Positions 1,061 through 1,282 of a stretch of 3,779 bases of DNA are shown in pieces (positions within the stretch are counted from its first letter, which is position 1; every line of letters starts with the position of its first letter). Location of the stretch: IMG/VR virus record IMGVR_UViG_2534682234_000019. One strand, 5' to 3'. Origin of the DNA: a virus. Lineage: Duplodnaviria > Heunggongvirae > Uroviricota > Caudoviricetes. Both the position numbers and the translations under genes were made by a program. The notes under the pieces are model-generated. The model was not told where the DNA came from. It did no database searches and worked only from the letters and a program-made list of their open reading frames with translations.

Positions 1061-1282
1061 ATGGCAGACATCATTGATTCAGCATCAGAAATTGAAGAAT
1101 TACAGCGCAATACAGCAATAAAAATGCGTCGCCTGAACTACCAGACTGTATCCGCAACTCATTGTTGTGAGTGTGGCGATCCGATAGATGAACGAAGACG
1201 CCTGGCAGTTCAGGGTTGTCGGACTTGTGCAAGTTGCCAGGAGGATCTGGAGCTTATCAGTAAACAGAGAGGTTCGAAGTGA
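1061..1282 (+). CDS. TraR/DksA-family C4 zinc-finger protein, 73 aa (phage TraR-like RNA polymerase secondary-channel regulator; resembles lambda Orf73)
   Basis: The translation has the exact family spacing C35-x2-C38-x17-C56-x2-C59 (HCCECGDPIDERRRLAVQGCRTCASCQ) and is 73 aa, like F-plasmid TraR. SD-like AGGGA at 1046-1050. Stop TGA 1280-1282 overlaps the next gene's GTG start (GTGA). Confidence 0.85.
   Translation: MADIIDSASEIEELQRNTAIKMRRLNYQTVSATHCCECGDPIDERRRLAVQGCRTCASCQEDLELISKQRGSK

Follow-up and report, generated by a model that had tools for sequence, protein, structure and literature searches.

The window analyzed here (the whole stretch of DNA, 3,779 nucleotides long) carries a run of genes encoded on the same strand, in the order exonuclease C-terminal part (lambda-type), DUF1317 (orf60a), DUF1382 (orf63), an orf61-like gene (phrog_303), the 73-codon gene under study (orf73), and an Ea22-like gene, with a variable block including a DUF551 protein, and then an AlpA-like excisionase, lying 3′ of the latter. 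These genes make up the exo-xis region of a lambdoid phage, in pL transcription direction, and the order exo-orf60a-orf63-orf61-orf73-ea22 is common to the window, lambda, Phi24B, 933W, and WGPS8. By megablast, the window was found in Stx-converting prophages of E. coli O157:H7, with 99.3% identity to Stx2a_WGPS8 over 86% of the window, and parts of this mosaic of prophage segments match in 4,626 of 5,426 complete E. coli genomes. At the scale of the gene itself, at least 17 deposited Stx-phage records carry all 222 bases of the ORF at 100% identity, among them VT1-Sakai, 1717, YYZ-2008, and WGPS8, and in these records identical copies are labeled “DksA-like zinc-finger protein,” “C4-type zinc finger protein,” or “TraR/DksA family transcriptional regulator.”

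The orf73 coding sequence spans positions 1061..1282 on the + strand, from an ATG start to a TGA stop, and the ORF list gives its product as MADIIDSASEIEELQRNTAIKMRRLNYQTVSATHCCECGDPIDERRRLAVQGCRTCASCQEDLELISKQRGSK, which confirms the length of 73 aa stated in the original prediction. The spacing C-x2-C-x17-C-x2-C, on which that prediction was also built, is exact when read from the sequence (C35-x2-C38-x17-C56-x2-C59), with the cysteine codons at 1163-1165 (C35), 1172-1174 (C38), 1226-1228 (C56), and 1235-1237 (C59), and the protein holds two extra cysteines, C36 and C53, that had gone unmentioned. The RefSeq record of lambda leaves the gap between ea22 and orf61 unannotated, yet this gap contains a 73-aa ORF, and the comparison with lambda Orf73 that had been proposed found 69 of 73 residues identical (95%). 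On the strength of this alignment and of its position, the window gene can be taken as the Stx-prophage orthologue of lambda orf73, and the ORF list, Pfam, phrog_54, the lambda identity, and the synonymous excess described below together lead us to annotate it as a putative TraR-family RNA-polymerase-binding zinc-finger protein.

That this ORF is a genuine gene was assessed on 65 distinct intact orf73 alleles gathered from related loci, each of which was compared with the window. Codon differences in the ORF frame amount to 1,056 synonymous for 1,012 non-synonymous, against 227:1,914 and 107:1,966 in the two shifted frames of the same alleles, and polymorphic sites number 70 at the third codon position, 44 at the first, and 32 at the second. 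To judge from this signature in the codon statistics, the ORF at 1061..1282 is translated on the + strand and in the frame given above. An RNA element or an antisense gene lying under orf73 was considered and ruled out, given that no Rfam family matched anywhere in the window on either strand and that the codon-position statistics favor the + strand frame. A scan of the window for promoter-like sites returned 3 of them, when shuffled sequence yields a mean of 5.3, and none was located upstream of orf73.

Family assignment, conserved motifs, and predicted structure

Profile searches retrieved both the DksA/TraR C4 zinc finger and the TraR subfamily, in line with the TraR/DksA identity originally proposed for the protein. 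Pfam PF01258 (zf-dskA_traR) matched with 37.8 bits against a gathering cut-off of 24.9 (E = 1.9e-9), residues 33-64 aligning on positions 4-35 of a profile of 36, and phrog_54, “DksA-like zinc-finger protein,” matched at 6.4e-26 over residues 1-71. A further match, at 8.4e-15 and with residues 3-64 aligning on positions 1-64 of a model of 64, was obtained with TIGR02419 (C4_traR_proteo), the title of which is [quoted passage not shown] With 55.1 bits against 59.7, the protein missed the curated cut-off of TIGR02419, which from the alignment reads as a near miss on the score threshold and does not reflect any lacking feature. Relatives detected by tblastn were spread over 594 phage records from Klebsiella, Escherichia, Salmonella, Vibrio, Pseudomonas, and others. 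As far as sequence profiles can tell, the 73-aa protein is thus a member of the DksA/TraR superfamily, within its TraR branch.

The residues by which TraR is described to engage RNA polymerase have their counterparts in the window protein. The DxxDxA motif of its N-terminal helix is read in the sequence as D3-I-I-D6-S-A8 (1067..1084, + strand), and the same motif in TraR reaches the active-site region of the polymerase (PMC9239242). The R46-R47 codons (1196..1201, + strand) align with R48/R49 of TraR, of which R48 is directed to the rim helices of the secondary channel and R49 to a contact with beta-prime Si3 (PMC9239242). The C4 zinc-finger globular domain (1163..1237, + strand) is delimited by C35, C38, C56, and C59, includes the extra C36 and C53, and is covered by the Pfam match and by the most confidently modeled part of the structure. 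Finally, a C-terminal helix predicted at residues 57-69 (1229..1267, + strand) bears E64, and the counterpart of this helix in TraR touches beta Si1 (PMC9239242). In an alignment of 41 intact homologues, with identities down to 58%, the residues D3, D6, A8, C35, C38, R46, R47, C56, C59, and E64 are all invariant.

The original prediction had staked itself on the conservation of the four zinc-ligand cysteines among homologues, and conserved they are: besides being invariant in the 41 intact homologues, C35, C38, C56, and C59 are kept in 108, 105, 96, and 95, respectively, of the 109 sequences of a broader alignment (106 retrieved homologues, the window protein, lambda Orf73, and F TraR), and in the sequence search against solved structures they align to those of TraR and YbiI. 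As regards the two extra cysteines, C53 is found in 93 and C36 in 53 of the 109 relatives. Deviations at one or more of nine checked key residues were recorded in 27 of the 109 sequences, mostly frameshifted or truncated copies, the remainder being isolated single-residue changes; the “VVGLVQVA” stretch that recurs in deviant copies arises when “GCRTCASC” is read in the +1 frame.

An AlphaFold2 model built on the alignment of the 41 homologues reached a mean pLDDT of 77, with values of about 90 over the zinc finger (residues 31-70) and of 55-68 over the N-terminal helix, and placed helices at residues 8-27, 44-49, and 57-69, with a single N-terminal helix and no coiled coil. Searched with Foldseek against the PDB, this model retrieved as its top match chain M of 6n57, that is, TraR on E. 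coli RNA polymerase (73 columns, probability 1.00, TM 0.52, rmsd 6 Å), followed by DksA on RNA polymerase, TraR in 5w1s, YbiI, and DksA2. The high rmsd to bound TraR arises because the helix angles differ, and the same difference in helix angle between lambda Orf73 in its free state and TraR in its bound one was described in a modeling paper of 2021. The model thereby suggests, with moderate confidence as far as the N-terminal helix is concerned, a protein of TraR-like size (about 70-80 aa) in which the three elements, an N-terminal helix, a zinc-finger globule, and a C-terminal helix, are present.

Predicted action on host RNA polymerase

The biochemistry of the lambda orthologue is already documented. 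When purified, lambda Orf73 competes with DksA for binding to RNA polymerase, half-maximally at 0.65-1 µM (Gopalkrishnan et al., mBio 2022, PMC9239242), inhibits rrnB P1 with an IC50 of ~50 nM without ppGpp and rpsT P2 as well, loses most of its activity upon the D3N or D6N substitution, and, when induced, complements a dksA deletion (PMC9239242). In a defective prophage with expression from pL, it brought pre-16S rRNA down to 29% and rpsT mRNA down to 45%, and the gene slowed host growth (PMC9239242). By comparison with this inhibition, activation of thrABC, argI, and rpoH P3 by lambda Orf73 was weak if any, for which the suggested cause is that the two extra cysteines may disturb the contact between the globular domain and beta-prime Si3 (PMC9239242). 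The regulator of host RNA polymerase that had been predicted at this locus, inhibiting rrn promoters after induction, corresponds to what has already been published for lambda Orf73 (rrnB P1 in vitro, polymerase binding, and post-induction effects; PMC9239242). The accompanying statement that the protein mimics DksA plus ppGpp stands for inhibition and not for activation, in view of the weak response of thrABC, argI, and rpoH P3 to lambda Orf73 and of the retention of both extra cysteines in the window protein. More generally, this gene has already been published along with its family and mechanism, and public annotation reflects this.

All the functional residues named in PMC9239242 are present in the window protein, and because of this we consider it very probable, by analogy, that it works like lambda Orf73, through binding in the secondary channel and ppGpp-independent inhibition of ribosomal promoters. 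Under this scenario, orf73 would be transcribed within the leftward early (pL) operon upon prophage induction or phage infection, with N antitermination reading through the hairpin that precedes the gene. The 73-aa protein would not bind DNA; instead, its N-terminal helix would enter host RNA polymerase by the secondary channel and place the DxxDxA aspartates near the active site, when the zinc-finger domain would sit on the channel rim (R46) and touch beta-prime Si3 (R47), and the C-terminal helix would contact beta Si1. The outcome would be an inhibition of ribosomal promoters that does not depend on ppGpp during early lytic growth, by which the building of new ribosomes in the host would stop, growth would slow, and phage yield would rise.

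The last of these steps is where published accounts diverge. The Gourse/Court groups (2022) obtained 3-4 fold more phage with an intact lambda orf73 after mitomycin C induction, whereas the Gdansk group describes orf73 as pro-lysogenic, its deletion lowering survival and lysogenization, and reports a lower yield when orf73 is present, a discrepancy put down to the manner of inactivation and to induction versus infection (PMC9239242). This disagreement concerns the physiological outcome and not the molecular mechanism.

A different main role could nonetheless be envisioned for the protein, namely to block the initiation of host DNA replication together with Ea22, and not via rRNA promoters. Earlier work, as cited in PMC9239242, implicated orf73 and three neighboring genes in the inhibition of host replication initiation (the “bin” phenotype, lambda orf73-ea22-ea8.5-orf55), and lambda Orf73 inhibits dnaA P2 in vitro at ~420 nM (PMC9239242); moreover, orf73 and ea22 adjoin and overlap, and their mRNAs rise together in Phi24B. 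Yet, with orf73 in a single-copy prophage, dnaA mRNA fell weakly if at all when the rRNA precursor fell more than 3-fold, and the authors of that study consider that the effect on replication is possibly indirect and exerted through the same polymerase-binding mechanism (PMC9239242), which would make bin a downstream phenotype rather than a different mechanism. We accordingly regard a replication-directed main role as very unlikely, and the inhibition of ribosomal promoters from the secondary channel remains our preferred reading.

Less probable still is the idea that the window encodes a zinc-finger protein of the kind of YbiI, a chromosomal member of the DksA/TraR family in E. coli with unknown role, and not a TraR-like polymerase regulator. 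In the sequence search against solved structures, YbiI (2kgo) is indeed the best match by E-value (3.8e-5), ahead of the TraR–RNA polymerase complexes 5w1s and 6n57 (2.4e-4 and 4.1e-4), the YbiI equivalog model NF008243 matches at 9.4e-10, and some close deposited copies bear the label “TraR/YbiI family protein.” But the alignment to YbiI is confined to the zinc finger (residues 31-65), when that to TraR begins at residue 1, and the score of 38.8 bits with NF008243 does not reach its cut-off of 96, just as the 24.4 bits obtained with NF010268, the equivalog model of F-plasmid TraR, do not reach 108. Both scores lie so far under their cut-offs that the 73-aa protein counts as homologous to both proteins but equivalent to neither. 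The length of TraR and its N-terminal DxxDxA are found in the window protein, and the 95%-identical lambda protein has a TraR-like activity established by experiment; a YbiI-like identity is therefore highly improbable in our view. As for orf73 of the window prophage being a decaying, non-functional remnant, the commonness of broken or cysteine-mutated copies (the 27 of 109 above) and the mosaic nature of the window could hint at it, but it can be discounted almost entirely, as the window copy is intact with every key residue, shares its DNA to 100% with the copies of Stx phages that are inducible and sequenced, VT1-Sakai and 1717 among them, and belongs to a family with an in-frame synonymous excess.

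The putative upstream leader and the junction with ea22

Upstream of the gene, between orf61 and orf73, a consensus scan detected a terminator-like hairpin (983-1001) followed by a T-run, the whole at 983..1010 on the + strand, which corresponds to the predicted “t2” of the literature. Positions 940-1075 of the window share 132 of 136 bases with lambda, in which a terminator between orf61 and orf73 has been described along with lower mRNA downstream (PMC4195576); a literature search for the named lambda terminator tL3 as counterpart of the 983-1001 hairpin gave recombineering papers alone. Across this hairpin runs a 31-aa ORF (959..1054, + strand, from the ORF list), which starts on the stop codon of orf61 and ends 6 nt before the ATG of orf73, and after which the sequence holds a 7-aa ORF (1054..1077, + strand). 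Lambda encodes an identical 31-aa peptide. According to the account given in PMC8614690, ribosome profiling of the lambda exo-xis block detected two extra peptides, the sizes of which equal those of the 31-aa and 7-aa ORFs; by this size and by position, the two ORFs may be lambda orf2313 and orf2311, respectively.

At 39 of 42 close loci and 10 of 110 diverged ones, a homologous leader peptide ends 2-6 nt 5′ of the orf73 start, counts that come from a peptide-specific test, given that any 90-nt stretch almost always holds the end of an ORF of at least 20 aa. In the start region, the Shine-Dalgarno sequence before the ATG of orf73 is weak and badly spaced, GGAAG abutting the ATG and AGGGA ending 10 nt upstream of it.

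From these features together, we speculatively suggest that read-through of the hairpin and initiation at orf73 both benefit when the leader is translated: ribosomes on the 31-aa leader could melt the terminator and then re-initiate at orf73. Extended to both genes, this would have orf73 and ea22 gated by translation of the 31-aa ORF, as in an attenuation-like switch; and, as a separate matter, the Stx allele may differ from that of lambda in strength or promoter range, thereby influencing Shiga-toxin yield. Taken together, we judge this two-part proposal rather unlikely. If true, a leader switch might account for the different behavior of the orf73 and ea22 mRNAs in lambda and Phi24B and under hydrogen peroxide. 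The practical interest of the allele comes from its residence in Shiga-toxin-converting prophages, where the amount of toxin made depends on how productive the induced lytic cycle is: by analogy, a factor that raises the lambda burst 3-4 fold through host ribosome shut-off could affect the yield of both toxin and phage in EHEC.

At its 3′ end, orf73 meets an Ead/Ea22-like gene of 315 aa (1279..2226, + strand), identified by Pfam PF13935 (4.5e-41, residues 2-145) and annotated as ead/Ea22-like in NC_049944. The GTGA overlap that had been reported is exact: the GTG start of the Ea22-like gene (1279-1281) overlaps the TGA of orf73 (1280-1282), at 1279..1282 on the + strand, as is also the case in the NC_049944 annotation and in lambda, and the match of the PF13935 profile from its position 1 supports the GTG at 1279 as the true start. 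By contrast, the “co-ordinated dosage” with Ea22 that had been drawn from this overlap is left without support, on the one hand because the Ea22-like gene has its own putative Shine-Dalgarno-like sequence (GAGG at 1269..1272, + strand, within the 3′ end of orf73 and 6 nt 5′ of the GTG), and on the other hand because such overlaps are common beside unrelated downstream genes.

At the junction, 72 of 76 close relatives have an identical sequence, a near-invariance that reflects recent common ancestry. Among relatives of less than 75% identity, the downstream start lies 1 base before the stop in 80 of 109 distinct loci, which counts as a 4-base overlap by the scan rule, although many of these 80 loci read GTG-ATG and their true start may be an ATG sharing one base with the stop; overlaps of 1 base and of other kinds account for 6 and 3 further loci of the 109. 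The genes downstream of these diverged relatives are of several unrelated kinds (with N-termini such as MKERGMIF, MMDYSKLS, MNNRQARR, MMFKLIQR, and others), a match to the Ea22 of the window being seen in only 30 of the 139 proteins encoded downstream. Within the window itself, other junctions are equally tight (ATGA at 667-670, 747-750, and 959-962). Overlaps next to unrelated genes and other tight junctions in the same window together point to tight packing as a general property of such early operons, and a specific orf73-ea22 partnership, as might be read from the overlap, was rejected on the frequency of overlaps in diverged relatives with unrelated 3′ genes. The joint rise of orf73 and ea22 mRNAs observed in Phi24B (PMC4195576) is consistent with co-transcription and has no bearing on translational coupling.

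Comparison with known systems

The closest characterized system is lambda Orf73 (Orf2310), which resembles the window protein in its 73 aa, its six cysteines, and its DxxDxA, RR, and ExxRL motifs, and the gene of which likewise lies between orf61 and ea22, with the 4-base overlap on ea22 and with the hairpin and 31-aa ORF upstream. The two proteins differ by H27Y, A29T, I30V, and V49A (lambda to window), at positions that vary naturally in the 109-sequence alignment, where the residues of the window are common variants and V30 and A49 are the majority ones. Unlike lambda, the element that carries the window gene belongs to the Stx-type prophages and has an AlpA-like excisionase, and its downstream Ea22-like protein has 315 aa when that of lambda has 182 aa.

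Among Stx phages, VT1-Sakai, 1717, YYZ-2008, and WGPS8 carry the window allele, whereas Orf73 of Phi24B and 933W (“putative C4 zinc finger protein”) is 95% identical, with the gene order kept, and differs from it by I4L, Y27H, T29A, and V30I. In Phi24B, orf73 is expressed after infection and induction (PMC4195576), and the phenotypes of its deletion have been studied (Zdrojewska 2019, as cited in PMC8614690). ST933Wp07 of 933W was considered as the second Orf73-like gene, L0141, of PMC8614690, and alignment found it unrelated.

Beyond lambdoid phages, TraR of the F plasmid (5W1S, 6N57) shares with the window protein its length, its three-part architecture, and the best full-length fold match, and shares with lambda Orf73 its IC50 on rrnB P1. 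It differs from the window protein by an identity of ~29% in structural alignment and by four cysteines instead of six; TraR also activates amino-acid and tra promoters, which lambda Orf73 hardly does, and its gene belongs to a conjugation operon when orf73 belongs to a phage early operon. DksA has in common the PF01258 zinc-finger family and a binding site in the secondary channel of the polymerase, but it is about twice as long, carries its aspartates on the tip of a coiled coil, and needs ppGpp for full activity, whereas the window protein has one N-terminal helix in the predicted model and, if it acts as lambda Orf73 does, would not need ppGpp. Lastly, P2 Orf82, VP882 Orf61, VHML Orf8, and X. 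bovienii Gp34 belong to the same family and likewise bind polymerase, inhibit rrnB P1, and complement dksA, but they are mostly less than 60% identical, show a higher IC50 on E. coli polymerase, and occur in other genomic contexts.

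Mosaic make-up and terminator-like hairpins of the window

On sequence comparison, the window is a mosaic. Positions 2205-2803, a segment that carries a small ORF and the N-terminal part of a 184-aa DUF551 protein, are 100% identical to an E. coli O145:H28 prophage, and the flanks of this segment match WGPS8, a Stx2a phage of O157:H7, at 99.3%. Among the phage records and complete E. coli genomes of the collections, none spans over 86% of the window at a single site. Over the whole window, 8 terminator-like sites were observed versus 3.8 expected from shuffled sequence. Three further terminator-like hairpins with T-runs were found on the (+) strand at 3091-3142 and 3547-3566, that is, in the two intergenic gaps flanking a gene for a 114-aa protein (3162..3506).

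Frameshifted and cysteine-substituted copies of orf73 in databases

Many database copies of orf73, the TraR/DksA-type gene of the window, carry a frameshift within the second CxxC, where "GCRTCASC" read in the +1 frame gives "VVGLVQVA", and other copies harbor single cysteine substitutions, such as C59R in P0015, which represents a cluster of 92 members. Relatives with such departures include P0027, P0030, P0043, P0050, P0056, P0058, P0071, P0090, and P0118. The abundance of frameshifted and cysteine-substituted copies suggests either that orf73 often decays in resident prophages or that sequencing errors recur at the second CxxC.

Small ORFs and the layout of orf61

A 27-aa hydrophobic ORF, MTTTECIFLAAGFIFCVLMLADMGLVQ (667..750, (+) strand), has an ATGA overlap at each end, with the stop codon of orf63 at its start and with an in-frame ATG (747) of the orf61-like gene at its stop. 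Since this ORF shares bases with the N-terminus annotated for the 93-aa orf61-like ORF, the real gene layout here could consist of a small membrane peptide and, after it, a 71-aa core of Orf61.

A 31-aa ORF, MNMKSKIIRELQAPFLLFAFTLKRINQQFRD (959..1054, (+) strand), starts across the orf61 stop codon (ATGA), spans the terminator-like hairpin at 983-1010, and ends 6 nt short of the start codon (ATG) of orf73. This ORF may be a leader that links read-through of the hairpin with orf73 translation. Among close loci, 39 of 42 have a homologue of the peptide, as do 10 of 110 diverged loci. Sharing one base with the TAA of the 31-aa ORF, a 7-aa ORF (MEDGRHH; 1054..1077, (+) strand) overlaps the start of orf73 in a different frame.

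Counterparts in lambda

Lambda encodes the same 31-aa peptide without any difference; its counterpart of the 7-aa ORF reads MKDGRHH rather than MEDGRHH. Ribosome profiling of lambda, according to PMC8614690, yielded a 31-aa "orf2313" and a 7-aa "orf2311", equal in size to the respective ORFs of the window; we infer that the 7-aa ORF corresponds to "orf2311". As for the orf61-like gene (681..962, (+) strand), it is a single intact 93-aa ORF in the window, as in Stx phages, where some RefSeq records label it "cell division protein ZapA". In lambda, by contrast, the equivalent sequence (3213..3525, (-) strand, of the lambda stretch L002) is broken in two: the 61-aa orf61 of the annotation, and another ORF, of 60 aa, holding the conserved C-terminal part. 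Since one Stx-phage ORF corresponds to two lambda ORFs, lambda orf61 looks frameshifted compared with the Stx-phage form.
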